A stretch of DNA of 64,000 nt from a virus (IMGVR_UViG_3300037510_000657:15013-79012), one strand, 5' to 3'; numbered from the stretch's first letter, positions 21,038 to 63,082 are shown. Numbers and translations are program-made. The notes: generated by a model not told the origin, from the letters alone.

Positions 21038-21065
21038 CCTTATCACCTAAGAAAGCCTGCAGATG
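21038..21065 (-). promoter_or_regulatory. CAA-N16-GnnATAAGG motif copy
   Basis: CAT-N16-GTGATAAGG. Confidence 0.55.
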
Positions 21066-21079
21066 CAGGCCCGGGGCCG

Positions 21080-23170
21080 TTAGCCCCGTGTGAGGTACGT
21101 GGTGAAGTTCTCGATGACCAGCCTCGAGAGCGCGACGGCCAGCCCCTCCTCGCTGGTCCTTCGCCAGAAGCGCTTGGGCCCGAACATCTGAAGGCACTTG
21201 TCCTCGGGGATGGACTCCTCGCCGATGACCAAGGTGAAGACCTTGATGCCCGATGCACGAGCTCGTTGGATCTCCTTTGCCACGAACGCCCGCAGCATGG
21301 ATTCGGGGATGGTACCGCCCGAGGTCTTCTGCTGGTAGGGAGAACCGTCGGTGAGGAGGAAAAGGCACTTCGCCATGCCCGACGAGACGTAGGACCGCAG
21401 GTGTGTGGTGGCCACGTGGATGGCAGGTGCCATCGGAGTGAGACCGCCGCACTCCACCGGTACGTTGAGCGGGAGTCCGTTGAAGGGATTCCTCACGGTG
21501 CTCACGCCCTTGTGCCCGTTGCAGTCCTTGTCGTACCGGTAGATCCACACCTCGCCCGGGTCGGCCTTCCGAACGAAGTTGTTGCCCGTGACAGCGGTTG
21601 CACCGCGGAAGCCCCATTGGCTCCCCATGACGAAGGGGAAGTCGAGGGACTTCTTCAGCAGCTCCATGCCGTGGCAGACCTCGACGTACGCGGTGTCCAT
21701 CGAGCCCGACATGTCCGAGAGCACTGCGTAGGCGAACCCACGCTGAGTGTCCTCGGACTCGAAGACGTTCGGGTCGGCTCCGCCGCACAGGTACTGCACG
21801 AAGGCAGGCACGTCCACCACAGGACCTGTCGGTCCGCGCTTCGCCTTCCTGCGCCCGAGGGCCTTGAAGAACGAGGAACGCATGCGCTGCACTACCAGCA
21901 GCTCCTCGGGAGTGAGCTCGATAGCCGAGCCCTCGACGTCCTCTGGCTTCACGTCGATGAGGAGGGTCTTGGCCTTGGTGTCCGAGATCAGCATGGAGGC
22001 CATGCTCTTCTGGGAGATGCCGTCTCTCAGCTGATCGACAGCATCACGCACGTCCTGGTCCGGCGGTCCGGACAGAAGAGCGTCCACCTCTTGTGGGTCG
22101 AGCTTCTCGGGCTGGAGAGCTCGAGCCACCATGGCCCGTGCCACCTGAGCTCCGGGGCTCTTCATGTCGTCAGGCGATGGGTCCGCGTGCGTCTCGTTCT
22201 CGTCGAGCTCCTCGGCCCCTTGCACTAGCTTGTCGAGGCCCTTGACGTTGGGGGTGGTGTCCGGAGTGCGTAGCTGTGCCTCGAGTGGCCCGGGCGGAGA
22301 GGGGCCACCTGCTGATGGCGGGGGTGGCGGCTGTGGTTGCTCTTGCTGCTGTACGAGTGCTGCCAGGCACTGCTCGACCACTACCCGCAGGTCGAGCAGC
22401 ATGTTGGCGAAGCCGCGGTACTGCACCTTCTCCGTGCCCCACTTCACGATGGCCCGGAGCTGGTCCCACTTCGGGTCAGAGGGCAGGTCGAAGTGGGTCT
22501 GGAAGACGAAGGTGATGAAGTCGTTGCTGGTCTTCTCCTCGGTGAGCCGGCGCCACCGCTTCCAGATCTCATCGGAGGACCCGGGGTAGACCAGGCTCCA
22601 CAGGCTGTTGCACCTGATGTCGTCGAAGGCGTTGACGAGGATGGAGAGGAACTCGACGATCTTCTGCTCGTTCAGGTGGGGCGGGATGCGGTTGCTGATG
22701 AAGAGCATTCGAGCGAACTGCTCGCAGAAGATCTTCCGAGCCACCAGGTTGCTCTTGAAGATGATGTGCTGCCACTCGTGCTCGAAGCCCCGGTAGATCT
22801 GCTGAGCGCTACACAGCAGGCACGGCGCCGGGTTCACCCCGTTGACGACCGCTCCTGGCTTGCCTCTCCACTCGTGCCCACAGGCCAGGGAGTAGGTGTG
22901 CGTGGTCTCGGCGATGGGGGCGTCGATGATGCCCGTGATCACCTGCTCGAGCCGCTCGCCGAAGTTGACGAAGATCTTCTTCGCGCAGTCGGTGGCGTTG
23001 TTGGGGCCCTGCTCGATGCGGAAGTTCTTCTTGAAGAGGTTGTTGAAGATCTCGTTCGTCCGGTAGAACGGATCCTTGTCCAGGAGGGGGACTCCCGGGA
23101 TGGGGTGCTCGGTGTCCGTGTCGGGGCCGCCGGAGGTGAAGTGGCTACGGCTCCTCTTGCTTCTCGACAT
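21080..23170 (-). CDS. VWA (MIDAS) domain protein, partner of MoxR-type AAA+
   Basis: SDMSGSM, GLTP, LLTDGSP; SD GAGGAG before ATG 23170. Confidence 0.8.
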   Translation of the reverse strand: MSRSKRSRSHFTSGGPDTDTEHPIPGVPLLDKDPFYRTNEIFNNLFKKNFRIEQGPNNATDCAKKIFVNFGERLEQVITGIIDAPIAETTHTYSLACGHEWRGKPGAVVNGVNPAPCLLCSAQQIYRGFEHEWQHIIFKSNLVARKIFCEQFARMLFISNRIPPHLNEQKIVEFLSILVNAFDDIRCNSLWSLVYPGSSDEIWKRWRRLTEEKTSNDFITFVFQTHFDLPSDPKWDQLRAIVKWGTEKVQYRGFANMLLDLRVVVEQCLAALVQQQEQPQPPPPPSAGGPSPPGPLEAQLRTPDTTPNVKGLDKLVQGAEELDENETHADPSPDDMKSPGAQVARAMVARALQPEKLDPQEVDALLSGPPDQDVRDAVDQLRDGISQKSMASMLISDTKAKTLLIDVKPEDVEGSAIELTPEELLVVQRMRSSFFKALGRRKAKRGPTGPVVDVPAFVQYLCGGADPNVFESEDTQRGFAYAVLSDMSGSMDTAYVEVCHGMELLKKSLDFPFVMGSQWGFRGATAVTGNNFVRKADPGEVWIYRYDKDCNGHKGVSTVRNPFNGLPLNVPVECGGLTPMAPAIHVATTHLRSYVSSGMAKCLFLLTDGSPYQQKTSGGTIPESMLRAFVAKEIQRARASGIKVFTLVIGEESIPEDKCLQMFGPKRFWRRTSEEGLAVALSRLVIENFTTYLTRG

Positions 23171-23513
23171 GCTTCGTCTCCTCGTACAGGTGCAGCAGGC
23201 CAACTCCCGGCTTCTTGGCCAGGGCCATGCCGAGCCAGGTGAGCTGGTCACCCTCCATGCCGGCGCCGCTGGGCATGATGAAGAAGTGCCGCTCCTCCAG
23301 CTCCGCGGTCTCGTCCAGGCTGGCGTCCACCTCGACGATCATGGTGGGCACCTCCTCGAACAACCGCACGTTCTCCTGGCCAGGGATGGCGAGAGGGCTG
23401 GTGCGGTCGACGACGAGGAGTACGAAGCCCACCACCTTCGCTTCCTTGGGGAGGCGGGGGTGGAACTCCATCTTGCCAGAGGGGAAGTTGATTTCCAGGA
23501 TTCCGCGCTTCAT
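23145..23513 (-). CDS. Hypothetical protein
   Basis: ATGA coupling. Confidence 0.55.
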   Translation of the reverse strand: MKRGILEINFPSGKMEFHPRLPKEAKVVGFVLLVVDRTSPLAIPGQENVRLFEEVPTMIVEVDASLDETAELEERHFFIMPSGAGMEGDQLTWLGMALAKKPGVGLLHLYEETKHVEKQEEP

Positions 23514-23725
23514 GCCTTCTCCTTGAGGTACGTCTCGTGCAGCGTGCTGAAGTGGTCGTGCAGGGCTTCGGTGAAGTCCCAGTCGGCCTGCCTGTCGTCG
23601 ATGTCCTTGATGAGCTGCAGGAGGACGTCCTTGTCCATGTCCGCAACTGCCTCGAGCAAGCGCTCCCTGTCCATCTCGATGTGGAGGAACACGCTGCTGG
23701 TCTCTTCCTTGTTCTTCTGCTTCAT
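23510..23725 (-). CDS. Hypothetical acidic protein
   Basis: ATGA coupling. Confidence 0.55.
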   Translation of the reverse strand: MKQKNKEETSSVFLHIEMDRERLLEAVADMDKDVLLQLIKDIDDRQADWDFTEALHDHFSTLHETYLKEKA

Positions 23726-24711
23726 GTCGGCGTCCCCGTCGGGCCTCCCCAGAAGCTTCGCAGCTTCTTGTCGCCGAAGATGGAGTTCATCCGTCCCAGC
23801 ACGGTCTTACGGTCGGCTCCCTCGAACTTCAGTAGCACCAGCTGCAGCGCCGTGTCCATCCCGAGCTTGGCCACCGTGCGAATGAGGCGGTCGAGGTCTC
23901 GAGTGGAGAGCGCGTAGCCGGTGGCCTGCTGCCGAGTCTCCCTGGCGAAGCGGATGAGCAGGTCGAGCTGGGGGTCGGAGAGGCCAGGCCCAGGGATGCT
24001 CTTCAGGATGCGCTTCTCCTGCTCGTGCATCGGGTAGGTGACCTCGATCTCCTCGAAGCGGGACTTGAGGTCCTCGTTGAGGTCGTAGGTGCCGCCGTAC
24101 ACCGTCGGGTTCATCGTGCCGACCACCCAGATCTGAGCTCCGGGCTGGAGTCGATAGGTTCGGCCGATGTGCGGGATGGAGCACATCTTGCGGAAGTCGG
24201 TGACGGCGTTGAGCTGCTTCTGCACCTGCGGCGTGAGGGCGTTGATCTCCTCGAGCATCAGGATGCAGTAGCCGGTCTCGTTGGCGACGTCGATGGCGGT
24301 GGGGATGCAGCCGAGCGAGAAGACGGTCTCCTGCCCGATGATGAACTGGGAGCCCTGGAGGTCGTACTTCTTGGTGTCCTCCGAGCACTCCTGGATGACC
24401 AGCGGGATCTTGTTCATCGCTGCGTACGCGATGATGGAGAGGGACTTGCCGTCGCCCTTTGGTCCCTTCAGCAGAAGGTTCGACTCGAAGGCGATGCTGC
24501 GGTAGACGTTGTGGAGCTCGAAGATGTCCACGAACGCCGGCGGGTTCTGGACGTAGAGCTCTTCGGTGGGGCTGCGGGTGATGCGAACACGGACCTCGCT
24601 CTCCTCGGCGAAGTCGGGGCGAAGGAGCTCGTAGAGCACCTCACGTTGGTCGGCTGGTACCGTCTCGAGCCAGGTAGCCCATGCTGCCTGCGCCTGCTGG
24701 TTGTGACTCAT
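23722..24711 (-). CDS. MoxR/CbbQ/NirQ-type AAA+ ATPase
   Basis: Walker A GPKGDGKS; Walker B ILMLEEIN; GTMNP; SD GGAGG. Confidence 0.85.
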   Translation of the reverse strand: MSHNQQAQAAWATWLETVPADQREVLYELLRPDFAEESEVRVRITRSPTEELYVQNPPAFVDIFELHNVYRSIAFESNLLLKGPKGDGKSLSIIAYAAMNKIPLVIQECSEDTKKYDLQGSQFIIGQETVFSLGCIPTAIDVANETGYCILMLEEINALTPQVQKQLNAVTDFRKMCSIPHIGRTYRLQPGAQIWVVGTMNPTVYGGTYDLNEDLKSRFEEIEVTYPMHEQEKRILKSIPGPGLSDPQLDLLIRFARETRQQATGYALSTRDLDRLIRTVAKLGMDTALQLVLLKFEGADRKTVLGRMNSIFGDKKLRSFWGGPTGTPT

Positions 24712-24745
24712 TCGAACCTCCGGGGAAACCAAATGGCTTCGGCCG

Positions 24746-24773
24746 CCTTATCCCGGGAGACAAGGCGGCCTTT
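24746..24773 (-). promoter_or_regulatory. CAA-N16-GnnATAAGG motif copy
   Basis: AAA-N16-GGGATAAGG. Confidence 0.55.
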
Positions 24774-26376: not shown

Positions 26377-26877
26377 TTACTGCATCCGCGGACGAAGCGA
26401 CTCGAGGAACAGAGCGATGGGCTCCACGCAAGCCTTGAGCCGGTGGTTGATGCCCGCATCCACTTCCCTGAGCTCGAGGAGAACGCCCATGTTGTCGTCT
26501 CCCTCGAGCTGCTCGAGCATGGCCGTCATGACTTCGGCCCGGTCACGGAGAAGGAACTTGGTGGGCTTCATCAGCTTCACCAGCATCTGCTCCTCGTCGA
26601 GCGTAGTGTGCACCCGCTTGCCGATGTACTGGCCCAGCTGGTCGTGGCACACCAGCGACAGCTTGGCGAGCTCCTTGCCGAGCTCGGAGCCGTCGTCCTT
26701 GTGGATGAGCAGGCCGCCTTCTTCCGAGGTGGCGCTCAGCGGGCCCTTGCCGTACTTGTAGCCCTTCTTGTGCAGCCAGTGCCTCGCTCCGAGGTGAGCA
26801 ACCGCTCCACCGACCGCACCGCTCGCCGTGCAGACAGAACCGACCAGAGCCCCAACCGCGATGATGATGGGAAGCAT
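26377..26877 (-). CDS. Hypothetical protein with N-terminal glycine-rich TM segment
   Basis: [13 protein letters not shown]; SD GGAGG. Confidence 0.55.
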
Positions 26878-26927: not shown

Positions 26928-26955
26928 CCTTATGCCCGCTTTTTACCGCCTCTTG
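26928..26955 (-). promoter_or_regulatory. CAA-N16-GnnATAAGG motif copy
   Basis: CAA-N16-GGCATAAGG. Confidence 0.65.
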
Positions 26956-29145: not shown

Positions 29146-29583
29146 CTAGAGCTCGATGTCGTAGCCGACGACGTTGCCCGTGACCGGAGAGAAGATGGAG
29201 ACGTACGACTCCATCACCCACAGCGGGTCGGGCTTGTTCTGCAGGAAGTGCTCGATGAGCTCGAGCGCGTAGTCCCTGGCCATCCAGTTCGGGACACGCT
29301 CGAGCGCCTCCTTCAGGGCGATGCGCCTGAGGAAGGGCATGATGCCGTGAATCTGGATGGTCATCCAGACCGTCGAGTTGAAGGCGTAGTGGTCGCGGTG
29401 CACGGGAGGGAGGTGGCCCCAGTCCTCCTTCACGCACATGCACTCGCCCGGCGTCGGGCTGGTCACACCCAGCTGGACGAAGAAGTCCACCACCCGGTCC
29501 CAGTCGCTCACGAGCTGGGTGCCCTTGGCGCTGAGGATGGCCGACTCGAACTCCCGAACCAGAACGGTCAACGAAGGGTGCAT
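29146..29583 (-). CDS. Hypothetical protein, paralog of 28411..28845
   Basis: SD AGGAGG; shared motifs. Confidence 0.65.
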   Translation of the reverse strand: MHPSLTVLVREFESAILSAKGTQLVSDWDRVVDFFVQLGVTSPTPGECMCVKEDWGHLPPVHRDHYAFNSTVWMTIQIHGIMPFLRRIALKEALERVPNWMARDYALELIEHFLQNKPDPLWVMESYVSIFSPVTGNVVGYDIEL

Positions 29584-29631: not shown

Positions 29632-29659
29632 CCTTATCCCCTGGGATGGCCTGAAGTTG
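29632..29659 (-). promoter_or_regulatory. CAA-N16-GnnATAAGG motif copy
   Basis: CAA-N16-GGGATAAGG. Confidence 0.65.
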
Positions 29660-29705
29660 CAGTTATAGCTAAGGAAAGGCCTGTTTAGGGCCTTGGGGTG
29701 GTGGG

Positions 29706-30973: not shown

Positions 30974-31001
30974 CCTTATCTCTTCCCACATGGCCGTATT
31001 G
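30974..31001 (-). promoter_or_regulatory. CAA-N16-GnnATAAGG motif copy
   Basis: CAA-N16-GAGATAAGG. Confidence 0.65.
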
Positions 31002-32890: not shown

Positions 32891-33337
32891 GTCACTCCTC
32901 CTCGTCGGTGATGTCGATGCGCCTGTCCCCGAGCCTCCAGTGCTCAGGAACGAAGGTCACGATGATGAAGGCCACGGCACACATGATGCCGAGGCCGATC
33001 TCTGCGCCCTTGCTGTTGTAGAAGGCGGTCAGGATGGCCAGAACGACCCCGACCCCCAGGTTGAGCCAGGCAGCTGCGTCTCGAACGGTCATGGTCTCTT
33101 TCTCTCCGTGGCCAGGGTGATGTAGGTCCCCACGCAGATGCCGTCCATCAGCATGGTGAAGATGTTGGAAGCCTTCATGTTCTGGCCGATACCGTAGAGG
33201 ATCCCCGAGGTCAGGAACACGGTGGCAATGACCCACCTGAACGTGTCCATGTGCTTCTTGCTCATTTGGAATCTTCCCCTCATCGTTTCGACCTCTTGGG
33301 TGTTGGCCAAAAAGCTATCCACAGTGTCACGACATTT

Positions 33338-33365
33338 CCTTATCACCGACGGAGAGGCCTTTGTG
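33338..33365 (-). promoter_or_regulatory. CAA-N16-GnnATAAGG motif copy
   Basis: CAC-N16-GTGATAAGG; heads a string of small membrane-protein ORFs (31739-33283). Confidence 0.55.
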
Positions 33366-41186: not shown

Positions 41187-41402
41187 TCACGGCTTCGGGC
41201 CTTTGAAGCTGTTCGGGTCGATGTTGTGCTTGCGCAGCAGCTCTCGCAGATGGTTGCGGTCCATGCGAGCCACTCGAGCGACTCGAGAAACGTTGCCGTG
41301 GTACATCTCCATCATCTGGGAGAGGAAGCCTCGTTCCCACCCGTCCGTGACCTCCTTCTTCATCTCGGCGTACGACTGTCGGGATACGGTCTCGGTCGTC
41401 AT
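41187..41402 (-). CDS. Stand-alone Fis-type HTH (sigma54 enhancer-binding-protein C-terminal type)
   Basis: WERGFLSQMMEMYHGNVSRVARVARMDRNHLRELLRKHNI. Confidence 0.75.
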   Translation of the reverse strand: MTTETVSRQSYAEMKKEVTDGWERGFLSQMMEMYHGNVSRVARVARMDRNHLRELLRKHNIDPNSFKGPKP

Positions 41403-41842: not shown

Positions 41843-41870
41843 CCTTATCTCCGCAGACGGCTCGCTCTTA
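41843..41870 (-). promoter_or_regulatory. CAA-N16-GnnATAAGG motif copy
   Basis: TAA-N16-GAGATAAGG, abutting hairpin. Confidence 0.6.
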
Positions 41871-41871
41871 G

Positions 41872-41896
41872 CTAAGAGAAGGCCGCAGGCGCCTTC
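41872..41896 (-). terminator. Conserved hairpin family copy
   Basis: CTAAGAGAAGGCCGCAGGCGCCTTC. Confidence 0.6.
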
Positions 41897-41903
41897 GTAG
41901 AGC

Positions 41904-42536: not shown

Positions 42537-42965
42537 TTAGGTTGCCGAGTAGGTAACGCCGATGGGGCAGTTGTACGGCCAGTGGCTCTTCACCAGACTT
42601 CTGCGCAGCAGGCTTTTCATGGAGTTCTGGACTTGCCTTCTCGGGAGACGCGTTCCGTTCGCTATCTCTTTGGTCGAGCACTTCTTGCCTGCGCTCTGCA
42701 AGAAGGCCAGCACGCTCCCGCAGATGGTATCGTCGCCCCTTGCTTTCCTCGCACCATCGGCCGCGAGGCTCTTGGCCTTGGCTTCCGTGGCTGCCTTGAA
42801 GTAGCCACCATCGACACCCAACAGGCGTGCCAGGTGCACCCGGGCATCGTTGTGTGCTTTCATAGCCAGGTCGGCTTCAGCTTCGGTCTCCTGGAAGCGC
42901 TGCCAGGCCTTCTGCATCTCGTCTCGGGTGGCCGGCTTCGTCGCGGTCGTAGCGGTGCTGCTCAT
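42537..42965 (-). CDS. Winged-HTH DNA-binding protein
   Basis: STKEIANGTRLPRRQVQNSMKSLLRRSLV. Confidence 0.6.
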   Translation of the reverse strand: MSSTATTATKPATRDEMQKAWQRFQETEAEADLAMKAHNDARVHLARLLGVDGGYFKAATEAKAKSLAADGARKARGDDTICGSVLAFLQSAGKKCSTKEIANGTRLPRRQVQNSMKSLLRRSLVKSHWPYNCPIGVTYSAT

Positions 42966-43005: not shown

Positions 43006-43033
43006 CCTTATCTCTCAGGAGGCCCTCAGTTTG
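43006..43033 (-). promoter_or_regulatory. CAA-N16-GnnATAAGG motif copy
   Basis: CAA-N16-GAGATAAGG. Confidence 0.65.
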
Positions 43034-44164: not shown

Positions 44165-44214
44165 GTAGCTCATCAACTATTGACGTAGCTCACTTACTCC
44201 ATTACTGTAGCTCA
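44165..44214 (+). repeat. Three direct GTAGCTCA repeats (operator candidate)
   Basis: At 44165, 44185 and 44207, overlapping the promoter. Confidence 0.6.
44180..44208 (+). promoter_or_regulatory. Sigma70-type promoter
   Basis: TTGACG-N17-TACTGT. Confidence 0.65.
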
Positions 44215-44614: not shown

Positions 44615-44929
44615 ATGGACACGTACTTGGAAGAGCAGCCGATCAGGACCATGGCCGAACTGAAGGCATGGCGCGGGAGGGACACGGCAGCAGAGGATGG
44701 GGACAGCTGGACCATCCTGGGGCTGAACCACGACGGCGTGATGAGGATCCAGGGGCACAACGGGATCGACACCAGGATCCCAACGGACATCCTGTTCAAG
44801 GACAACCGAAACGCAGACGACAAGTGCGTCTTCACGTGCAACCTGACCGGTAGCTACGTTCGCATCCACCCAGAGCTTCATCGCCACCTGCTCAAGCTCT
44901 TGGAGACGAAGAAGGCGGCTGAGGGCTAA
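44615..44929 (+). CDS. Hypothetical protein
   Basis: SD GGAGG. Confidence 0.55.
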   Translation: MDTYLEEQPIRTMAELKAWRGRDTAAEDGDSWTILGLNHDGVMRIQGHNGIDTRIPTDILFKDNRNADDKCVFTCNLTGSYVRIHPELHRHLLKLLETKKAAEG

Positions 44930-44956
44930 GAGAAGGGCCAGGGGGCGCCCTTGCTC
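44926..44956 (-). terminator. Conserved hairpin family copy
   Basis: CTAAGAGAAGGGCCAGGGGGCGCCCTT at a convergent junction. Confidence 0.55.
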
Positions 44957-44963
44957 GGAGTAG

Positions 44964-45377
44964 CTAGTTGTCGTAGCGGACCTCGGAGGAGGGCTGCTTG
45001 ACCCTCATGCTGGCCCCGCGGTTGAAGGACCGGCGGATGGCCTCCTCGACCGGCATGACCCCGAGCTCGTGGTAGAGGGCGGAGCTCTCCATGGCCGAGA
45101 AGGTCTTGCCAGTGGCGAAGCCCTCGAGGTAGTCCTTGATGCTCTCGAGCTTGTTGGCCACGTTGATGGCCCAGCGGGCATGGCGAGTGTTCCGGTGGGC
45201 GTTCTTGAGCAGGTTGAGCCGGCTCTTCTCCACGCCCTGGTGCTCCACGAAGGCGGCCACGGCCTTGACCATGATGTCCCGGGCGGTGTCGATGGTGAGG
45301 TTGTCCTCCACGGCAGCCTTGGCCAGGTCCTTGGAGATGGTGGCGAGGGTCGAGATGAGCTTGATGGTCTTGAACAT
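44964..45377 (-). CDS. Hypothetical helical protein
   Basis: First gene after motif at 45436. Confidence 0.6.
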   Translation of the reverse strand: MFKTIKLISTLATISKDLAKAAVEDNLTIDTARDIMVKAVAAFVEHQGVEKSRLNLLKNAHRNTRHARWAINVANKLESIKDYLEGFATGKTFSAMESSALYHELGVMPVEEAIRRSFNRGASMRVKQPSSEVRYDN

Positions 45378-45435: not shown

Positions 45436-45463
45436 CCTTATCCCACGGATCGACCGGTTCTTG
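45436..45463 (-). promoter_or_regulatory. CAA-N16-GnnATAAGG motif copy
   Basis: CAA-N16-GGGATAAGG. Confidence 0.65.
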
Positions 45464-46271: not shown

Positions 46272-46940
46272 TCAGCGGCGAACCGAGGGGTTGAAGTGGG
46301 CGTACCTGCCGTCCATGGCCTTGTACTCCTGATCGTCGGTGAGTGGCGGGGGGACGAACATGCCGTCGTTGGCGATGATGTTCTTCATGATGGCGATCAC
46401 GCGGGCCGTCGGGGACTTGAACTGAGCCCCGAAGGCAGCAGCGATGAGACCCTCGCTCTGGTACTCGTCCATGTCGTCGATGCCGGAGACGCCAGAACCC
46501 TCGAAGGCCTTCTCGATGAGCGCGAGCTGCTTGAAGGAGAAGTACTTCTCGAGGTACTCGACCATGTTACCGGTGTTGACGCCGCCGCCCGAGAACAGGT
46601 CGGAGGTGGTGAGCTCGTCCGTCCGGAGGACGCAGGCCAGGAGCACGCTGCCGAGAGCGCAGCCCGTGCACCTCGGCGCACCAGCCTCGATGTAGAGGTC
46701 ACGCACCTCCTCCGACGTCCCGGCCCGCTGGCTCTGCGCCAGATCCACACCGATGTCGACAACCTTGCCGACCAGGTAGCCCTTGTGCGCCGGAGCGTAC
46801 TTCTTGCTCTGGATGAGAGCGAGGACATCCTTGGCCACCACGACGCGCTGCTGCGCTCTGCTCATCTTGTGGAACCGGCGCTCCCGGTCCCGGATGATCT
46901 TCCGCATCTTCGCCTGCTGCTTCTCCTTCTTGGTCATCAC
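46272..46940 (-). CDS. Hypothetical protein
   Basis: 222 aa; CTGCALG motif. Confidence 0.6.
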   Translation of the reverse strand: MMTKKEKQQAKMRKIIRDRERRFHKMSRAQQRVVVAKDVLALIQSKKYAPAHKGYLVGKVVDIGVDLAQSQRAGTSEEVRDLYIEAGAPRCTGCALGSVLLACVLRTDELTTSDLFSGGGVNTGNMVEYLEKYFSFKQLALIEKAFEGSGVSGIDDMDEYQSEGLIAAAFGAQFKSPTARVIAIMKNIIANDGMFVPPPLTDDQEYKAMDGRYAHFNPSVRR

Positions 46941-47293
46941 TTCCTCTCCTTCTCGAGCTTGATGAGGGCCGCGAGCTCGTTGGCGGCCTCGTTGCGACGC
47001 TGGTTGATGGGCAGGCAGAGGACGATCCCCAACGCCCGCTCGTATGCCTTGATGGCGGCAGCCTTCCGCTCGTCGGCGACCACCCGGTAGAGGTCGTGCA
47101 CGGTGTCCATGTTGCCGAGGTTCTGCTCGGCTACCTCCATGCAGTGCGACTCCTCCGTCGTGAGAGGTCTCGGCTCGTTCTTGTTCCGTCGAGCCGTCTT
47201 GGCCGCATGCGCCTTCAGCTCTCGCTCCAACCTCTCGTTCCCGACGGGATCGTAGTCGTCGTCTCTGTTGTCGCCGCCAGTGTTGCTGGGCAT
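46937..47293 (-). CDS. Hypothetical protein
   Basis: SD AGGAG; after motif at 47327. Confidence 0.55.
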   Translation of the reverse strand: MPSNTGGDNRDDDYDPVGNERLERELKAHAAKTARRNKNEPRPLTTEESHCMEVAEQNLGNMDTVHDLYRVVADERKAAAIKAYERALGIVLCLPINQRRNEAANELAALIKLEKERK

Positions 47294-47326: not shown

Positions 47327-47354
47327 CCTTATCTCAGGCGCCCTACGTTCCTTG
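47327..47354 (-). promoter_or_regulatory. CAA-N16-GnnATAAGG motif copy
   Basis: CAA-N16-GAGATAAGG. Confidence 0.65.
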
Positions 47355-47382
47355 AAAGAACCCGGAACGGCCTGGGATAAGC
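47355..47382 (+). promoter_or_regulatory. Plus-strand copy of motif (divergent pair)
   Basis: AAA-N16-GGGATAAGC upstream of the plus-strand island. Confidence 0.55.
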
Positions 47383-49856: not shown

Positions 49857-50059
49857 CGCTCCTGGTGATGCAGGTCGGCGTACCAACGGGCCACGCTCTC
49901 GAGCTTCGCCCTGTGTTTCACGATGGGCCTGCCAGTCTTGGTCGACCTGACCAGGATCCAGGAGGCCAGCGAGGGCATGGTGGCGATGTACCAGTTCGTC
50001 TTGGGCACGGCCTGAAGATCTAGCAACGCCTGCGACGGCTGCAAGGGCACCGCTGTGGG

Positions 50060-50092
50060 CTAAAGAAGGGCCGCAGGCGCCCTTCTCTTAGC
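50060..50092. terminator. Near-symmetric (bidirectional) hairpin family copy
   Basis: CTAAAGAAGGGCCGCAGGCGCCCTTCTCTTAGC at the convergence of + and - islands. Confidence 0.65.
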
Positions 50093-54377: not shown

Positions 54378-54599
54378 CTACCTCCTCAAGACCTTTGCGG
54401 TCTTCTCGTGGGTGTCGAACTCGATGTCGACGTACTCCCCGTGCTCGATGAACTCCCCCATCAGCTTGCTGGCGTCCTGGAGGAACGCGTCGAGGGTGTC
54501 CTCGTCCATGGGGGAGGCCACCTCGGTTGCGTCGCGCCTCAGGTCGGCGAGCGCGTCGTGGATGGCGTCCGGCGTCTTGAACGTGACGGTGAACTTCAT
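54378..54599 (-). CDS. Hypothetical protein
   Basis: MKFTVTFKTPDA; 73 aa. Confidence 0.55.
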   Translation of the reverse strand: MKFTVTFKTPDAIHDALADLRRDATEVASPMDEDTLDAFLQDASKLMGEFIEHGEYVDIEFDTHEKTAKVLRR

Positions 54600-54953
54600 T
54601 TGACTACCTTCTCCACTTCCGTGCGGATGAGCTTCACGATGGTGTCGGTCGAGGGGCAGCCCTCGTTGCGCCACTCGTCGTCGGGGAGCCCGGGGATGTC
54701 GGTGAGCCTCTTCACCTCGGTGAGGGTGTCCTTGAGCTTCTCGCGCTCGTCTTTGAGTCGCTCGAGCTCAGCCTCTAGGCCCTCCACGTACTCTGCGTCG
54801 AATCGGCCCATCAGTACCTCCCGAGGTTGGCTGGCAAGGGGAGCGCCAGGCGCTCGTACAGCCAGCGGGTCAGAACAGCCACTACGGTCGCGAGACAGGT
54901 CACCAGAACCTGCCGTATCAGTTCTTTCATCGGAGTCTCCTCCCAGGAAAAAG

Positions 54954-55006
54954 AAAGGCAGGAGCGGTGATCGCTCCGGGTCGGGAGTTGGGACACTCCT
55001 GCCTTT
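54954..55006 (-). terminator. Terminator/attenuator in the leader after motif 55075
   Basis: AAAGGCAGGAG/CTCCTGCCTTT inverted repeat followed on the minus strand by CTTTTT. Confidence 0.55.
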
Positions 55007-55074
55007 CCAGTCGCCGGCCATTACAGCCAGCTACCGCATGAACTCTCACCCCCCTTCAAACTTGGGTTCAGAGT

Positions 55075-55102
55075 TCTTATCTCTTCTTGGGCACATGGAT
55101 TG
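55075..55102 (-). promoter_or_regulatory. CAA-N16-GnnATAAG motif copy
   Basis: CAA-N16-GAGATAAGA. Confidence 0.6.
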
Positions 55103-55570: not shown

Positions 55571-55873
55571 CTAGAGGACCACGTTGGCCTTGTTGAGCCG
55601 GTCCTGGACCCACATGGCGCGGATGAGAACGGCGCGAGCGTAATCGCTCTTGTCGCCGAGGTTGACGCGAACGAACGCCTTGCCATCGCGGATCCACTCC
55701 GTGGCGTCGGCCATGTCCTTGGCGCTGGCCATGGACTCCAGTCGCTTGTGCAGCCGGTCGATGAACTGGTTGGGCGCCTTGTCCTCGTTGAAGGCGATGA
55801 GGAAGCAGAGGTCGTGGTACAGGCGGCGATGGTCAATGGTGAGGCCGGTCTGGAGATGCACAGAAGCGCCCAT
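55571..55873 (-). CDS. Hypothetical protein
   Basis: First gene after motif at 55908. Confidence 0.55.
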   Translation of the reverse strand: MGASVHLQTGLTIDHRRLYHDLCFLIAFNEDKAPNQFIDRLHKRLESMASAKDMADATEWIRDGKAFVRVNLGDKSDYARAVLIRAMWVQDRLNKANVVL

Positions 55874-55907: not shown

Positions 55908-55935
55908 CCTTATCTCACCGAACGGTCCTCTCTTG
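55908..55935 (-). promoter_or_regulatory. CAA-N16-GnnATAAGG motif copy
   Basis: CAA-N16-GAGATAAGG. Confidence 0.65.
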
Positions 55936-55936
55936 G

Positions 55937-55963
55937 CTAAGAGAAGGCCACAGGCGCCCTCTC
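55937..55963 (-). terminator. Conserved hairpin family copy
   Basis: CTAAGAGAAGGCCACAGGCGCCCTCTC. Confidence 0.6.
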
Positions 55964-55970
55964 CCTCGGC

Positions 55971-57021: not shown

Positions 57022-57366
57022 CTAGCAACAGTCGCCGTTGTGACACTTGTGCTGTTGGAAAGCAGGGCACCGCTCGTCGTGACACGAGTGCACTTCCTGC
57101 CGCGGGTTCTTGGGCGTCGTTGTGGTCTCGGTAGTCGTCGTCCGAGAGACGTAGTGGATTTCGGATAGCCCGGAGCCCCCGAGTCGTTCCGTCATCTCGT
57201 CGATCTTCTTCTTGGCCTTCTTGACGCCGTCCGCGGCGCCGGCGCTGATGGCCAGAACGAAGCTCTTGGCTGCGCTCTGGATCATCAGGTACGTCACCAA
57301 CGCAGAGAAGGCGACGCTGAGGCCCACAGAAATCAGAATGACTAGCGCATCTTCTTTCATCACCAT
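57022..57366 (-). CDS. TM-anchored hypothetical protein
   Basis: SD AAGGAG; N-terminal TM. Confidence 0.5.
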   Translation of the reverse strand: MVMKEDALVILISVGLSVAFSALVTYLMIQSAAKSFVLAISAGAADGVKKAKKKIDEMTERLGGSGLSEIHYVSRTTTTETTTTPKNPRQEVHSCHDERCPAFQQHKCHNGDCC

Positions 57367-57402: not shown

Positions 57403-57430
57403 CCTTATCTCCGCTGCGGTGCTCCGCTTT
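57403..57430 (-). promoter_or_regulatory. CAA-N16-GnnATAAGG motif copy
   Basis: AAA-N16-GAGATAAGG (CAA lies 2 nt further out). Confidence 0.55.
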
Positions 57431-57436
57431 TGCGAG

Positions 57437-57465
57437 CTAAGAGAAAGGCCACAGGCGCCTTCTCT
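57437..57465 (-). terminator. Conserved hairpin family copy
   Basis: CTAAGAGAAAGGCCACAGGCGCCTTCTCT. Confidence 0.6.
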
Positions 57466-57470
57466 CCCGA

Positions 57471-57990: not shown

Positions 57991-58422
57991 TCAGTTGCCC
58001 GAGGGGATGGAGACCAGGACCGGGGGGCTGACGTAGGTGCGGACCTCCGTCTCCTCTTCCTCCCAGGGGAAGGGCGCCCGGGCGTTGCGCCGGGAGTCCA
58101 GCCACGCCTCGAAGATGCGGGCGTCCTCCAGGGCCACTGCCGACTCCAGGGCGGCCTCGATGTTCCCGGTGGCGACGAAGGCATCCCGGACGTCCAGGAG
58201 GCGTTCACGGACCGTCACAGCCCGTTCCGTGACCACGTCCATGGTCGGCCGACCAGCCATGGTGACGCCTACCTCGTAGAGGGCCACGTCGATCTGGTCG
58301 ACCGCGGCGATGACCGCGCTGGTGGTCACCAGCATGGCATCCACCAGACCGAGGGTCAGGCGCGGCATGCGGTTGAGGGTCTTCGGAACGACGGTCTCGA
58401 ACAGCTCAGCGATGAATCCCAT
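57991..58422 (-). CDS. Hypothetical helical protein
   Basis: First gene after motif at 58471. Confidence 0.55.
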   Translation of the reverse strand: MGFIAELFETVVPKTLNRMPRLTLGLVDAMLVTTSAVIAAVDQIDVALYEVGVTMAGRPTMDVVTERAVTVRERLLDVRDAFVATGNIEAALESAVALEDARIFEAWLDSRRNARAPFPWEEEETEVRTYVSPPVLVSIPSGN

Positions 58423-58470: not shown

Positions 58471-58498
58471 CCTTATGCCACCAGGTGAGGAGAAATTG
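58471..58498 (-). promoter_or_regulatory. CAA-N16-GnnATAAGG motif copy
   Basis: CAA-N16-GGCATAAGG. Confidence 0.65.
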
Positions 58499-58589: not shown

Positions 58590-61163
58590 CTAGCCGTTCT
58601 TCTCGACGACCTCGGCCAGGCCGGTGTCCGCGACGAGCTGGGAGACGCCGCGGGCGACAGCCTCCTTGTCGTCCATCTGCTCGATGTCCGAACGGCTGAG
58701 GGAGACGTGGTTCTGGAAGAGGTACTCGCGCAGGCCGCTGGCGACGACCTCGCCGAAGGCCTCGCCGAGGACGACCAGGTCCGGCTTCTCCGCCTCCGGC
58801 TCCTCGAGGTGCTTGGCGTGGTTGAGCATCTGCGCCGCCGCGATCTCCAGGTGCTTGGCGGTCACGAGCAGCTTGCCGTTGCGGTCCTTGCTGCGGAAGC
58901 GGACGGCGGCGAGCTTGGAGCGCTCGACCGTCTCGCGGATGATGGCCGGGATCTGGCCGGCGAGCAGCTTGCCCACCTTGGTGAGGTCGGCGGAAGGGTC
59001 GATGATGTTGTGGCCGCTCTCCTCGACGCCGTAGACGTTGATGAGCTCCTGCACCGCCGTCGGGTCGGGCGGCAGGAAGGTGATGATGGCGTCCGTGCGG
59101 CCCGGGCGCATGAAGGCGGGGTGGATGGCGTCGACGTTGTTGCTGGTGAAGACGAGCATGACCTTGTCGTTCTTGCGGTCGACGCCGTCGATGGTGTTGA
59201 GCAGCTCGTCCATCTCGTCGTCGCGCATGCCCTCGGTGACGCGGTCCACGTCCTCGGCGAAGATGACGCAGGGCGCGTACTTCTTGGCGAAGTAGAGCGC
59301 CTTGGGCAGCTGCTTGAGGTCCTTCAGGTAGAGGTAGGTCCACCCGTTCTCCTCGCACTTGCGCGAGGTCACGTGGGCGGTGAGGGTCTTGCCGGTGCCG
59401 AACGTGCCCTCGAGCAGCACGGTGCGCCGGATGGGGATGCCGTTGTCGAGGCAGGCCTGCGTCTCCTCGATGGGCGTCCAGAGGTTCACCTCGACGAGCT
59501 CGCGGATGTCGGCGGGGAGTACGAGGGCGTTCGCCTTGCCGCGGGTGTCGATGAACGTCGGCGCGCGGAGCACGTCGAAGTTGATGTTGTCGGGGGTGAA
59601 GATGGTGAAGTCCACCTGGACCGCCTTGCCCTTGTAGATGGACTCCTTGGCGAGCATCTCCTCGGTCAGCTGCATGAGCTTGTCGGCCTGCGCACGCTCG
59701 CTGTTCTTGATGACGGCGCTGAGCACCAGGCAGGGCAGGCCGTTGTGGAAGGCGATGTTCGGCGTCAGCTTGCCCGAGAGACCGCGCACCTCGATGGGGC
59801 CCCACGGGACCTGCTGCTTGGTGCCGAGGCCGGTCTCGATGGTGAGCATCGTCGGCGGGATCTCGCCGAAGAAGGTGTCGGTGCCGGTGACGTGCGAGAA
59901 GCCGTAGACCTGGGCGATGGCCTTGTAGAGCGCCCACGCCGCGTCGAGCGGGTACCAGTCCTTGAACTTGTACGAGAAGTTGTAGGTCCGCTCGGCCTCC
60001 TCCTTCATCTTCGCCAGCCAGTAGATGGCGGTGTCGAGGTCCATGCCCTTGGGCAGGTTGATGTGCTGGGCGTTCGGGTCCTCCGTGAACATCACGTTCA
60101 CCGAGCTGAACTTCTCCAGCTGCTTGCCGAGCTTGTCGCCGAGAGCGTTGACGGTGTTCTTCTTGTCGGCCATGTTGTTCCCCTTGTTGTCCTGCGTTGC
60201 GTTGTCGTTGCGGGTGTTGACGAGCTGACGGACCAGCTCGTTGATGTCGTCGCCACTGGCGACTTCTTCGTCTTCGGGCGGAGGCGGGAGCGGGAAGACG
60301 TTGCCGTTGGCGTCGGCCTTCTCCTTGCGGACCTGGCAGTCCGGGTCCGTGCAGTTGCGGTCGTGGATGGCGGCTCCGACCTTCGCCAGGTTCTCCCTCG
60401 CTTCTTCGATCTTCGGGCGTACATACGGGTCGTCGTAGTACTCCTGCATCCACTTCTCCATGATTCCCGGAGGAGTGGCCTTCCCTTTTTCCCAGTACTC
60501 GAAGTTCGCCTTGGCCCTGGCGTGCTGGAGCGCGTCGAAGTCGATGTAGGAGATCTGGGCGAGGGCGACGCAGCGCTCCTTGATGTCGCGAAGCGTCGAC
60601 TCCGAGGGCGGCGACTTGCCGTATATGATGGCGACCTCGGTCTTCATGGCGAAGACCGAGTCCATCTTCGCCTTGGTGATGAACTCGGAGAGGAGCGTAC
60701 CCCACGCCTGTGCTGCGGCCGGGTCCGCGGCGGCGCCATCGGCGACCGTGTTGCCCCACTCGACGGCGTCCTCGGGGAGGTTGTCCTCTTCCGTGTACCA
60801 GACCCCGTCACGGGGGTCACTGAAGCCGCCTTCCTGCGCGGCCTTCCGGCACCCCATGAGGACGTCGAGCTCGCCGTCGATCTTCTCCATCAGGCGCTTG
60901 TCGCGGAGCATGCCGGCGATGAACTTGAGCTGGTCGATGGCTCGACGCGCGAGGTCGCCGCTCCTGCGGAAGACGTAGAACATCTCCCGGTAGGTGAAGT
61001 TGTAGGTCGTGCCCCGAAGGAACTCGAGCTGCCTCTCGCTCAGCGGAAGCTCGGGGAGCAGACCCTTCTCGATGTTGAGCGAGTCGAGCTCGTCGTCATT
61101 GCCGCCTTCCTCGACGGGCTCCTCCTCTTCTTCGTATCCGTCGTCGCTGTCTTCGTGTCCCAT
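58590..61163 (-). CDS. AAA+ ATPase (classical clade) with long N-terminal extension
   Basis: Walker A GTFGTGKT; Walker B IFAEDVD; SRH FMRPGRTD. Confidence 0.85.
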   Translation of the reverse strand: MGHEDSDDGYEEEEEPVEEGGNDDELDSLNIEKGLLPELPLSERQLEFLRGTTYNFTYREMFYVFRRSGDLARRAIDQLKFIAGMLRDKRLMEKIDGELDVLMGCRKAAQEGGFSDPRDGVWYTEEDNLPEDAVEWGNTVADGAAADPAAAQAWGTLLSEFITKAKMDSVFAMKTEVAIIYGKSPPSESTLRDIKERCVALAQISYIDFDALQHARAKANFEYWEKGKATPPGIMEKWMQEYYDDPYVRPKIEEARENLAKVGAAIHDRNCTDPDCQVRKEKADANGNVFPLPPPPEDEEVASGDDINELVRQLVNTRNDNATQDNKGNNMADKKNTVNALGDKLGKQLEKFSSVNVMFTEDPNAQHINLPKGMDLDTAIYWLAKMKEEAERTYNFSYKFKDWYPLDAAWALYKAIAQVYGFSHVTGTDTFFGEIPPTMLTIETGLGTKQQVPWGPIEVRGLSGKLTPNIAFHNGLPCLVLSAVIKNSERAQADKLMQLTEEMLAKESIYKGKAVQVDFTIFTPDNINFDVLRAPTFIDTRGKANALVLPADIRELVEVNLWTPIEETQACLDNGIPIRRTVLLEGTFGTGKTLTAHVTSRKCEENGWTYLYLKDLKQLPKALYFAKKYAPCVIFAEDVDRVTEGMRDDEMDELLNTIDGVDRKNDKVMLVFTSNNVDAIHPAFMRPGRTDAIITFLPPDPTAVQELINVYGVEESGHNIIDPSADLTKVGKLLAGQIPAIIRETVERSKLAAVRFRSKDRNGKLLVTAKHLEIAAAQMLNHAKHLEEPEAEKPDLVVLGEAFGEVVASGLREYLFQNHVSLSRSDIEQMDDKEAVARGVSQLVADTGLAEVVEKNG

Positions 61164-61220: not shown

Positions 61221-61248
61221 CCTTATCTCGTAGAGGACACACGTATTG
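61221..61248 (-). promoter_or_regulatory. CAA-N16-GnnATAAGG motif copy
   Basis: CAA-N16-GAGATAAGG. Confidence 0.65.
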
Positions 61249-62132: not shown

Positions 62133-62138
62133 GTCCCC

Positions 62139-62167
62139 ATGATAGGAGAGCAAGAGCCGGCCGTCGA
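62139..62167 (-). promoter_or_regulatory. Sigma70-like promoter (leaderless candidate)
   Basis: TCGACG-N17-TATCAT, 6 nt before ATG 62132. Confidence 0.45.
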
Positions 62168-62169
62168 GG

Positions 62170-62616: not shown

Positions 62617-62619
62617 GGT

Positions 62620-62895
62620 TCACCCCCATCCATCCCGTGTCGGGCACAGGTGTTCGTGGCGTCTTCCGATGTAGTACGAGACGGTTCCGACGGCCGCAAT
62701 GGCGACCCCGGTGGTCCTCCCCATGAACAGGAGGACGAACATCGCGAGGATGCAGAGCACCGGGAAGCACCTGAGCAGGAAGTGGATGACCACCCACAGC
62801 CGTGCCTCGGCGTCGTAGTCGAAGAACGGCTTCTCTTCTCTCTCGACCCACTTCGGCCCTTCATCGGCCAGGTTCAGCTTGCGCGTCAGCGGCAT
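62620..62895 (-). CDS. Small 2-TM membrane protein
   Basis: SD AAGGAG. Confidence 0.5.
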   Translation of the reverse strand: MPLTRKLNLADEGPKWVEREEKPFFDYDAEARLWVVIHFLLRCFPVLCILAMFVLLFMGRTTGVAIAAVGTVSYYIGRRHEHLCPTRDGWG

Positions 62896-62932
62896 GGTCT
62901 CTCCTTGGAAAAAGACTTCCTGTCCACAAGGT

Positions 62933-62960
62933 CCTTATGCCCGCAGAACCGTTGGCTTTG
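62933..62960 (-). promoter_or_regulatory. CAA-N16-GnnATAAGG motif copy
   Basis: CAA-N16-GGCATAAGG. Confidence 0.65.
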
Positions 62961-62961
62961 A

Positions 62962-63023
62962 GCTAAAAAGCGGAGAGGGTGGTGGGGTCACCGGCGGGGG
63001 ACCGTAGGCCCACCACCCTCTCC
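62962..63023 (-). terminator. Long-stem terminator
   Basis: 15-bp perfect inverted repeat GGAGAGGGTGGTGGG/CCCACCACCCTCTCC followed by GCTTTTTAG on the minus strand. Confidence 0.7.
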
Positions 63024-63054
63024 TAGACACAAACGCAGGGCTTGCTGTCCTAGT

Positions 63055-63082
63055 TCTTATCTCGCGAAAGCAGCTAGATGTG
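63055..63082 (-). promoter_or_regulatory. CAA-N16-GnnATAAG motif copy
   Basis: CAC-N16-GAGATAAGA. Confidence 0.5.

Follow-up and report, generated by a model that had tools for sequence, protein, structure and literature searches.

A two-part motif repeated along the accessory genes

The window analysed here, a 64-kb stretch (64,000 nucleotides) of a 105.9-kb viral record that is roughly 50% complete, carries a plus-strand structural module at 1-17,900 and, beyond it, minus-strand accessory and DNA-metabolism genes (Table 1). Set among the latter is a motif of the form CAA-N16-GDSATAAG. The initial annotation had listed 18 copies, and all 18 were found in the window; their coordinates are one base higher here because the earlier start was the base after ATAAG. 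As had been described, the triplet is CAA in 11 of the 17 minus-strand copies and CAT, CAC, TAA or AAA, at the identical offset, in the remaining six.

Against an expectation of 0.02, exact CAA-N16-GDSATAAG occurs 11 times in the window, only on the minus strand. GDSATAAG occurs 18 times, 17 of them minus and one plus; dinucleotide shuffles, the kind of control that had been proposed as a check, gave 3.0 +/- 1.7. The whole record holds 21 minus-strand copies and one plus-strand copy, with counts of 1/1 for the reversed control pattern. A position-weight scan returned 21 minus-strand sites with scores of 17-37; no other site on either strand scored above 12, a level passed by about 1.8 sites in shuffles. 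The spacing is as fixed as originally claimed, with CAA at exactly N16 in 14 of the 21 copies and at any other offset in at most one.

By our own gene calls, 20 of the 21 minus-strand sites are intergenic. All 21 are co-oriented with the genes downstream, and an SD-led minus-strand ORF begins 16-80 nt downstream of every minus copy except that at 63056, which agrees with the claimed placement ahead of genes. A search of the plus-strand structural module (window 1-17,900) found no copy, again as first reported. Equal occurrence in coding regions and on both strands, named beforehand as an outcome that would count against the promoter reading, is the opposite of this distribution. The repeated two-part motif is confirmed as real. 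Conservation 3' of its core reaches ATAAGGAnCTnGAA; the motif region showed no RNA fold (mean z = -0.38) and gave no match in an Rfam search.

Table 1. Motif copies, hairpins and a canonical promoter candidate, in window coordinates
Feature	Position	Strand	Context
CAT-N16-GTGATAAG(G)	21039..21065	-	5' of 85-aa ORF 20745-21002
AAA-N16-GGGATAAG(G)	24747..24773	-	5' of 329-aa AAA_5 ATPase gene 23722-24711
CAA-N16-GGCATAAG(G)	26929..26955	-	5' of ORF 26377-26877
CAA-N16-GGGATAAG(G)	29633..29659	-	5' of ORF 29146-29583; hairpin + CTTAGC just 5', at ~29668-29700
CAA-N16-GAGATAAG(G)	30975..31001	-	small GTG-started ORF 18 nt downstream
CAC-N16-GTGATAAG(G), weakest copy	33339..33365	-	5' of ORF 33089-33265
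TAA-N16-GAGATAAG(G)	41844..41870	-	5' of DenV-like pyrimidine-dimer glycosylase gene 41399-41827; hairpin + CTTAGC abuts upstream box
CAA-N16-GAGATAAG(G)	43007..43033	-	5' of winged-helix protein gene 42537-42965
CAA-N16-GGGATAAG(G)	45437..45463	-	5' of ORF 44964-45377; hairpin + TTTAGC 9 nt upstream of CAA
CAA-N16-GAGATAAG(G)	47328..47354	-	5' of ORF 46937-47293; back-to-back with plus copy
AAA-N16-GGGATAAG, sole plus-strand copy	47355..47381	+	weak (PWM score 9.6); SD-led ATG at 47409
CAA-N16-GAGATAAG(A)	55076..55102	-	5' of ORF 54596-55021; overlaps last codons of upstream ORF
CAA-N16-GAGATAAG(G)	55909..55935	-	5' of ORF 55571-55873; hairpin + CTTAGC abuts CAA
AAA-N16-GAGATAAG(G)	57404..57430	-	5' of ORF 57022-57360; hairpin + CTTAGC just upstream
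CAA-N16-GGCATAAG(G)	58472..58498	-	5' of ORF 57991-58422
CAA-N16-GAGATAAG(G)	61222..61248	-	5' of 857-aa AAA+ ATPase gene 58590-61163
CAA-N16-GGCATAAG(G)	62934..62960	-	5' of ORF 62620-62895; directly after long hairpin + TTTAGC
CAC-N16-GAGATAAG(A)	63056..63082	-	no downstream ORF
Long GC hairpin, then TTTAGC	62962..63024 (approximate)	-	terminator-like, between copies 63056 and 62934
Repeated hairpin family member GAGAAGGCGCCTGTGGCCTTTCTC + TTAGC	57436..57468 (approximate)	-	
Further hairpin-family members	end near 17916, 25471, 29673, 36454, 41876, 44930, 45478, 50064, 55941, 58518, 61266		
Canonical sigmaA-type candidate promoter TTGACG-N17-TACTGT	44180..44208	+	intergenic gap; class other than motif

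A hairpin with TTAGC lies 0-20 nt upstream of at least eight of the window copies. A GC hairpin of this kind, ending in TTAGC, would terminate the preceding unit, giving a series of terminator-promoter cassettes, and the copy at 63056 is predicted to yield an RNA of about 85-90 nt ending at the hairpin at ~62968-63024. At the copy 21039..21065, a terminator-like hairpin (at 21046) overlaps the spacer. The upstream boxes of the divergent pair at 47355 (plus) and 47328 (minus) abut, and similar divergent motif pairs are present in one relative, G003.

This layout resembles the PeSL (promoter-early stem-loop) cassettes of T4-like phages (PMC2839356, PMC4122927). Both composites pair a GC stem-loop, as terminator, with a conserved promoter, occur in dozens of copies, mainly 5' of ORFans in hypervariable regions with a few in conserved modules, and vary in the placement of the stem-loop relative to the promoter boxes. 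Here too the stem-loops stand beside or overlap the candidate promoter at ORFan borders in a variable region, window ~25-65 kb (record ~40-80 kb), with few homologues in relatives. In contrast, PeSL promoters are sigma70-like and host-read, whereas the motif here is non-canonical (G at -7, TGCAAA box), the phage family encodes its own sigma factor and polymerase, and it is a conserved TTAGC, not a U-run, that ends the hairpins. Assignment to the PeSL class was rejected on the promoter itself, the consensus not being that of a host sigma70-like promoter.

Geometry and class of the candidate promoter

Read as a promoter, the motif would have (T)GCAA(A) as its -35-like box, spanning roughly -35 to -30, and G-n-[G/C/T]ATAAG as its -10-like box, the 17 bp of spacer between them showing no conservation. 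The -10-like box has G at -14, and its G at -7 never varies. The start site is probably a conserved purine that follows after about 7 nt. The geometry (TGCAAA, 17 bp, [G/T/C]ATAAG, CAA-N16 being equivalent to a 17-bp spacer) is sigma70-like: the spacing falls in the fixed 16-18 bp range of sigma70-family promoters with the spacer sequence free to vary, as it does among orthologues, and the intergenic, upstream and co-oriented placement is likewise that of the sigma70 family.

Host promoters have T at -7, the canonical housekeeping form being TTGACA-N17-TATAAT, with A at -11. A canonical housekeeping promoter was rejected: position -7 is G in every copy from this phage, its relatives and the cultured Salmonella phage Arash, and the -35 box matches three of the six TTGACA positions. 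A scan with the housekeeping consensus, for which 2 sites per 20 kb would be expected, gave 1 and 0. Host-type promoters nevertheless appear to coexist with the motif, from which they are distinct in G000-G003 and in Arash. In the intergenic DNA of G000-G003, TTGACn-N16-18-TAnnnT sites number 14 against 4.6 +/- 2.0 in shuffles; 11 of the 14 lie on the strand opposite the motif, and orthologous ones stand upstream of the polymerase gene. This signal did not extend to G004-G008, tested with the TAGNCT pattern, and the support drawn from canonical promoters as a separate class is modest. A search for other enriched promoter-like words found none.

Relatives, sigma factor and polymerase

The motif recurs in conserved form throughout the phage family, whose GC content ranges over 49-66%. 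In about 24 relatives spanning that range, one orthologous site, 8-10 kb away from the capsid gene and on the other strand from it, has both boxes and their spacing conserved and the spacer sequence variable. Genome-wide scans gave 3.5-8 sites in shuffles, whereas G003 has 47 (42 of them minus), G001 has 29, every one on the plus strand, and G002 has 27, of which 23 are plus; strand counts are 14:0 in G004 and 0:7 in each of G006 and G007, with 0-1 in controls. In distant relatives the motif is kept at orthologous spots by the RNase HII and AAA_5 ATPase genes though the flanks diverge, and in G001 and G003 the AAA_5 ATPase orthologues also have it upstream.

The initial annotation had proposed, as one option, that the phage has its own dedicated sigma factor or RNA polymerase. 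This was borne out in the family, since each of the seven near-complete relatives (G001-G007) has genes for a sigma70-family factor and for a fused beta-beta' polymerase, and not in this half-complete record, where searches for sigma and RNA polymerase genes found neither. The link between motif and enzyme therefore runs through the relatives. Synteny with them places the two genes outside this fragment, and both, which are core genes of the family, would belong to the missing half of the genome. Regions 2, 3 and 4 of the sigma factor are conserved in G001-G007; it has Lys at the position of sigma70 Q437, lacks the WW dyad, and finds its best family matches in SigB/F/G, RpoS and RpoD rather than FliA. 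The polymerase is a single chain with a strong Pfam match (E 1e-61). In at least six of the seven relatives (G005 not counted), the motif and the genes for sigma and polymerase are on opposite strands.

Arash (OQ632216.1) is a distant cultured cousin with a homologous capsid protein (28% identical), and its sigma factor gp10 and polymerase proteins gp206 and gp216 are also homologous (E 1e-20, 0 and 1e-50). Its genome carries GGTATAAG 30 times on the minus strand and once on the plus strand, against 4.7 in shuffles; the copies lie 21-60 nt upstream of the start codons of minus-strand genes and are separate from its canonical sigma70-type promoters. As in the family studied here, the core lies opposite the strand of the virion, sigma and polymerase genes and 5' of non-structural genes. 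Arash differs in that the polymerase is split over two genes and the upstream A-rich box is weak, a downstream TAAAGTGTAA block being conserved instead; many of its copies read TGGTATAAG, which is extended -10-like. Both sigma and polymerase were detected in Arash virions, and the paper describes no promoters (PMC10585845). Arash is the only one of these phages for which such packaging is known.

Candidate readings and comparison with known systems

The promoter interpretation is supported by intergenic position, co-orientation, two-box spacing of the sigma70 type, the lack of an RNA fold, and phylogenetic footprinting in relatives. From the observed statistics, position, spacing and conservation of the motif, and from the presence of sigma and polymerase genes in relatives, we infer that it is a transcription start signal, what reads it and when. 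We consider it rather probable that the motif constitutes a promoter class read by the phage's own sigma70-family factor with the phage beta-beta' polymerase. The approximately 21 copies in the fragment would then each open a short transcription unit made up of accessory or DNA-metabolism genes, and the sigma factor, with its regions 2, 3 and 4, would be expected to partner the single-chain enzyme; use of host core enzyme by the phage sigma is possible, and less likely than use of the phage polymerase. Since the Arash virion carries both proteins, the genes downstream of the motif may be those that an injected holoenzyme transcribes early. More tentatively, and with somewhat less than even confidence, we propose that it is the early promoter code of a virion-delivered phage holoenzyme (single-chain beta-beta' plus sigma70-family factor) in a very large lineage that includes Arash. 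A sigma-dependent polymerase would be injected, the invariant -7 G would act as a discriminator separating host and phage promoters, and some or all later genes would be left to host-type promoters. The structural genes have no motif copy, so late-gene transcription is not explained by motif promoters.

Alternatively, the motif could be a strong early promoter for the host primary sigma, PeSL-like, with the phage sigma and polymerase serving other (late) genes. The hairpin-promoter architecture 5' of ORFans in a variable region fits such a role, as does the sigma70-like geometry: TATAAG/GATAAG match 4-5 of 6 TATAAT positions, with G at -14, and host sigma70 might use copies with TATAAG (a 5/6 match) or the extended -10-like TGGTATAAG. 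Moreover, characterised phage sigmas mostly drive middle or late genes (PMC4331800). We nevertheless regard it as unlikely. Selection for strength with host sigma70 should favour T at -7 and TTGACA, yet the invariant -7 G and non-canonical -35 box hold from Salmonella to the hosts of phages of 49-66% GC; a separate canonical class coexists in Arash and G001-G003; and a search for a late-gene motif as an alternative phage-sigma target found none.

Instead of a start signal, the motif could be the target of a regulatory phage protein or a repeat left at the junctions of recombined cassettes. Such a reading would account for its position at the cassette borders of a hypervariable region, where most genes have no homologue in relatives, and PeSL-type repeats are known recombination mediators. 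It is a distinctly improbable reading of an asymmetric motif that is always gene-oriented, lies a fixed short distance 5' of SD and start codons, has its boxes at promoter spacing, and keeps its orthologous positions beside RNase HII and AAA_5 ATPase though the flanks diverge. Least probable, and very much so, is the hijack of a sigma28/FliA-class alternative sigma of the host, with the consensus TAAA-N15-GCCGATAA. The loose resemblance noted in the initial annotation is there in the A-rich upstream box, the GATAA core and the overall spacing, but membership in the class failed: the -10 GCC is missing (GAG/GGG/GGC/GGT instead), GATAA is one base out of place when measured from the upstream box, and the core reads TATAAG in lower-GC relatives and Arash. 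The phage sigma also matches other families over FliA.

Bacterial-like beta/beta' polymerases have been described in phages from metagenomes, the RNA-polymerase-encoding Caudovirales termed mReC (PMC7481178), and in one cultured orphan phage, Arash. Compared by description, the mReC are likewise uncultured large tailed phages with bacterial-like beta and beta' subunits; they differ in their reported gp23-type capsids (PF07068), the capsid here having no Pfam match. The mReC paper mentions neither sigma factors nor promoters (PMC7481178), and in neither it nor the Arash paper is a promoter or a role for the accompanying sigma described. The motif would supply the first candidate promoter code for a phage lineage that is widespread and largely uncultured. 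A precise family-wide consensus with a cognate sigma and polymerase makes the promoter question directly testable, and with this consensus transcription units could be annotated across hundreds of genomes of large uncultured phages. Should the -7 G rule prove true, the pair would be an orthogonal bacterial-type sigma/promoter system.

Comparable phage-sigma-specific promoters are those of SPO1 gp28 and gp33/34. Others are those of phiEco32 and 7-11, TAATGTATA (PMC4331800). In all three, as in the family studied here, phage-specific promoter words unlike the host consensus occur in phages that encode sigma70-family factors, with host-type promoters alongside. Their sigmas, however, redirect host core to middle and late genes, structural genes included, whereas this family also encodes a catalytic beta-beta' enzyme; and phiEco32 uses a single -10-like element, unlike the bipartite motif here, which avoids structural genes. 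The jumbo phages phiKZ and AR9 have multisubunit RNA polymerases with promoters of their own (PMC7598289). Those enzymes are likewise phage-encoded beta/beta' types with no alpha subunit, and their virion-packaged form transcribes early genes from phage-specific motifs, packaging here being known for Arash alone. They are highly diverged, in 4-5 pieces and without a sigma70-family factor, whereas the enzyme here is a single chain with a recognisable sigma, and the promoter geometry is bacterial (-35/-10).

The bipartite element in the record and its relatives

All 18 copies of the bipartite element CAA-N16-GDSATAAG listed in the initial annotation, whose coordinates mark the base after ATAAG, were recovered in the window (bases 15013-79012 of a 105,876-bp IMG/VR record estimated to be 50% complete). 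Here GDSATAAG matches 18 times (17 minus, 1 plus) against 3.0 expected, and the full pattern 11 times, on the minus strand only, against 0.02 expected. Across the whole record there are 21 minus-strand copies and 1 plus-strand copy, versus 1/1 for a reversed control pattern, and in a weight-matrix scan the 21 minus-strand sites score 17-37 and all other positions at most 12. The proposed fixed spacing held: the upstream triplet lies exactly at N16 in 14 of the 21 copies, with at most one copy at any other offset. Far from being equally common in coding regions and on both strands, the sites are intergenic in 20 of 21 cases and divide 21 to 1 in favor of the minus strand; the plus-strand structural module has none, as first reported. 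Intergenic calls rest on a GC3-based gene map, a second gene caller having been set aside because it assigned wrong strands in parts of this high-GC record.

In promoter numbering, the element consists of TGCAAA (-35 to -30), a 17-bp spacer, G at -14 and [G/C/T]ATAAG (-12 to -7), with conservation continuing 3' of the core (ATAAGGAnCTnGAA). Judged from sequence, this geometry is of the bacterial holoenzyme type, but at -7 a G invariably replaces the T of sigma70-type promoters. No RNA fold was detected in the motif region (mean z -0.38), an Rfam search of the window returned no family, maximal-order Markov 8-mer statistics were uninformative for the motif, and a literature search on the motif words found no published description. 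Additionally, a weaker copy was seen within the tRNA array (record 86482-86489, beyond the window at about window position 71470); its CAA box falls inside the 3' end of tRNA-Phe, and it may drive the downstream tRNAs.

Two pieces of the window matched no cultured phage in megablast searches, i.e. no close cultured relative. A capsid protein search yielded 131 IMG/VR relatives, of which seven near-complete genomes (G001-G007; 177-210 kb) were used. An orthologous motif site is kept at ~24 loci (GC 49-66%), 8-10 kb from the capsid gene and on the opposite strand, with the consensus ctGCAAA-N15-G[GA][GC]ATAAG[AG]..nTGA and a spacer sequence that differs among relatives; TATAAG is a frequent form of the -10-like box in members of lower GC. 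Genome-wide, 47 sites (42 minus) were counted in G003, 29 (all plus) in G001 and 27 (23 plus) in G002, versus 3.5-8 in shuffles. The form AAA-N15-GNNATAAG divides between strands 14:0 in G004 and 0:7 in each of G006 and G007 (control 0-1), and motif strand is mixed in G005 (3:3). Divergent pairs resembling the one in the window (see table) occur in G003 at 163332/163359, 173199/173221 and 177067/177093. A 6.5-kb contig (JAJRBU010000229.1) with a capsid gene 79% identical was binned with a wetland Methanoregulaceae archaeon MAG. It was the sole contig match in the scan, and its placement probably reflects mis-binning, not a host signal. The tmRNA tag was uninformative for host.

Among cultured phages, Salmonella phage Arash (OQ632216.1) has the closest-matching capsid protein (28% identity). 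Its genome carries 30 minus-strand copies of GGTATAAG and a single plus-strand copy, versus 4.7 in shuffles (both strands together), with the consensus ctGGTATAAGtAAagTGTAa. For 29 of the 30 a start codon lies 21-60 nt 3', and for the remaining one the distance is 117 nt; our own gene calls place 23 of the 30 in intergenic DNA. They precede annotated genes that are non-structural and on the minus strand; the sigma, polymerase, portal and capsid genes are on the plus strand among virion genes. Promoters are nowhere mentioned in the Arash paper (PMC10585845).

Phage sigma factor and fused polymerase

The dedicated sigma factor or RNA polymerase postulated initially has no gene in the record, which holds about 50% of the genome, but both are present in all seven near-complete relatives. 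The sigma70-family protein (~236-280 aa; regions 2, 3 and 4) has its best matches among SigB/F/G, RpoS and the RpoD C-terminus; aligned by profile with RpoS and SigA, it invariably has Lys where sigma70 has Q437, and the WW dyad is missing. The polymerase is a single open frame of 2105-2674 aa fusing beta (PF00562, E 1e-61) and beta' domains (PF00623, PF04997, PF04983, PF05000, PF04998). An alpha subunit (PF01000) is absent from all eight records, and T7-type polymerase (PF00940) was found in none of them, a weak negative since the PF00940 control matched nowhere.

Synteny places record 1-40 kb at 101-141 kb of G003, and 83-103 kb at 190-203 kb. The polymerase gene (G003 92.9-99.2 kb) would thus sit just left of the record's first base, and sigma (G003 32.7 kb) would also fall in the missing half. 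Both genes lie among virion genes in all these genomes and opposite the motif strand in G001-G004, G006 and G007; in G001-G003 sigma shares the strand of the capsid gene. The G003 sigma is 29% identical to Arash gp10 (E 1e-20), and its polymerase matches Arash gp206 (31.5% over 1507 aa) and gp216 (26%). Mass spectrometry of Arash virions gave the most spectra for polymerase beta gp206 and also detected beta' gp216 and the RpoS-like sigma gp10 (PMC10585845). A 182-aa protein of G002 (L091 1087-1632) matching sigma region 4 only (PF04545, E 7e-8) is a possible second, minimal sigma-like factor.

Cassettes, hairpins and the reading of the motif

An SD-led minus-strand ORF lies 16-80 nt 3' of every minus copy except 63056. 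The products are mostly small proteins of unknown function; those that could be named are a DenV-like pyrimidine-dimer glycosylase, an AAA_5 ATPase, an 857-aa AAA+ protein, a winged-helix protein and, outside the window, RNase HII. Directly 5' of many copies is a repeated GC hairpin of the type GAGAAGGGCGCCTGCGGCCCTTCTC followed by TTAGC. Its distance to the CAA box varies (0-20 nt), which makes it a terminator-like element in its own right; the 3' end is always TTAGC, never a U-run, and the hairpin-plus-CTTAGC form also occurs in G001 and G003. A palindromic copy near 50064/50087 lies between convergent genes. The unit at copy 63056 is a candidate small RNA of ~85-90 nt. Also, ORF 54596-55021 lacks an SD, and its ATG comes after a mini-ORF of two codons (ATG CGG TAG) that does have one, 3' of copy 55076 (55021-55075, minus), an arrangement that suggests possible translational coupling.

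Coordinates of features in the window and in stretches of relatives' DNA (L-numbers)
Feature	Position	Strand	Remarks
Hairpin family (GAGAAGGGCGCCTGCGGCCCTTCTC)	~17911-17941, 41871-41903, 44925-44957, 50059-50092, 55936-55968, 57436-57468	minus	near-identical stem and loop
Copy 63056 unit	62962-63082	minus	no ORF; ~30 nt, then long perfect hairpin and TTTAGC, next motif copy directly after
Divergent motif pair	47328-47381	one minus, one plus	back-to-back; upstream boxes abut (TTGAAA)
Candidate canonical promoter, TTGACG-N17-TACTGT	44180-44208	plus	821-nt gap without called gene; class other than motif
TTGACA + TGTACA site	L106 8775-8830		G003
TTGACA + TGTACA site	L118 ~15000-15042	minus	G002 35042
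TTGACA + TGTACA site	L100 ~5400		G001

We consider that the motif is probably a class of promoters recognised specifically by the phage's own sigma, most plausibly bound by that sigma and the phage single-chain polymerase as a holoenzyme. Paired with TTAGC hairpin terminators, such promoters would form cassettes expressing accessory and DNA-metabolism genes. Because the Arash enzyme and sigma are found in the virion, and both are encoded among virion genes in all these genomes, the motif may label early genes for transcription by a holoenzyme that the phage injects. A host primary sigma could instead read it, as in the promoter-early stem-loop cassettes of T4-like phages (PMC2839356, PMC4122927), which have a similar architecture; the motif promoter, by contrast, is not host-like. 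Other intergenic gaps of Arash hold canonical sigma70-type promoters with T at -7 (e.g. TTGACA-N17-TATAGT, TTGACA-N18-TATGAT), so that the ATAAG class stands apart in a phage whose host has a well-known sigma70 consensus. We regard reading by the host primary sigma as unlikely. That the repeated, strand-biased element is a regulator site or recombination repeat seems less probable still, set beside its -35/-10 geometry and the ORFs that follow it. The suggested resemblance to sigma28-type promoters did not survive comparison, the motif falling outside that class, and recognition by a host sigma28-type factor is very improbable.

The logic of a promoter class for the phage's own sigma is similar to that of the phage-sigma promoters of phiEco32 and 7-11 (PMC4331800) and the virion polymerase systems of phiKZ and AR9 (PMC7598289); what sets the present case apart is a -35/-10 promoter together with a beta-beta' chain recognisably of bacterial type, partnered by a sigma70-family protein. 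The paper on polymerase-encoding Caudovirales from metagenomes (mReC) mentions neither sigma nor promoter (PMC7481178), and the sample numbers of our relatives matched none of the mReC contigs in its supplement. The motif makes promoter recognition of this polymerase lineage testable.

Host-type promoters and other motifs

Canonical sigma70-type hexamer pairs are not enriched in the window (1 and 0 per 20 kb vs 2 expected), and across the whole record (G000) and G001-G003 sigma70-like pairs are 2-4x rarer than in mononucleotide shuffles (5 vs 21, 49 vs 104, 30 vs 131 and 18 vs 68). The few strict sites concentrate in intergenic DNA, where TTGACn-N16-18-TAnnnT occurs 14 times versus 4.6 +/- 2.0 (0 of 200 shuffles reach 14), with 11 of the 14 on the non-motif strand. 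This is modest evidence that host-type promoters form a class separate from the motif in these four genomes. The narrower TTGAC-N17-19-TAGNCT was not enriched in G004-G008 (3 vs 4 for control).

No conserved late-promoter box was found 5' of the capsid gene in 30 relatives, and only vague CTTAC/TATACC similarity was seen in the divergent gap that precedes the structural block. K-mer enrichment 5' of other-strand genes returned only the motif's reverse complement and T-runs; no second enriched motif was found 5' of structural or other non-motif-strand genes.

An orthologous canonical site, TTGACn-N18-TAGACTAnCACA, is present in G001, G002 and G003, with no clear counterpart in G006. Another orthologous site, 5' of the polymerase gene, reads TTGACG-N17-TACGCT in G003, TTGACT-N18-TACTCT in G001 and TTGGCG-N18-TAAGGT in G002 (by eye). 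Furthermore, these three genomes share an orthologous TTGACA box followed by two TGTACA palindromes (e.g. tgtcTGTACAGtgtcTGTACAT), an arrangement resembling a host-type promoter plus operator that heads a long operon on the strand bearing sigma.
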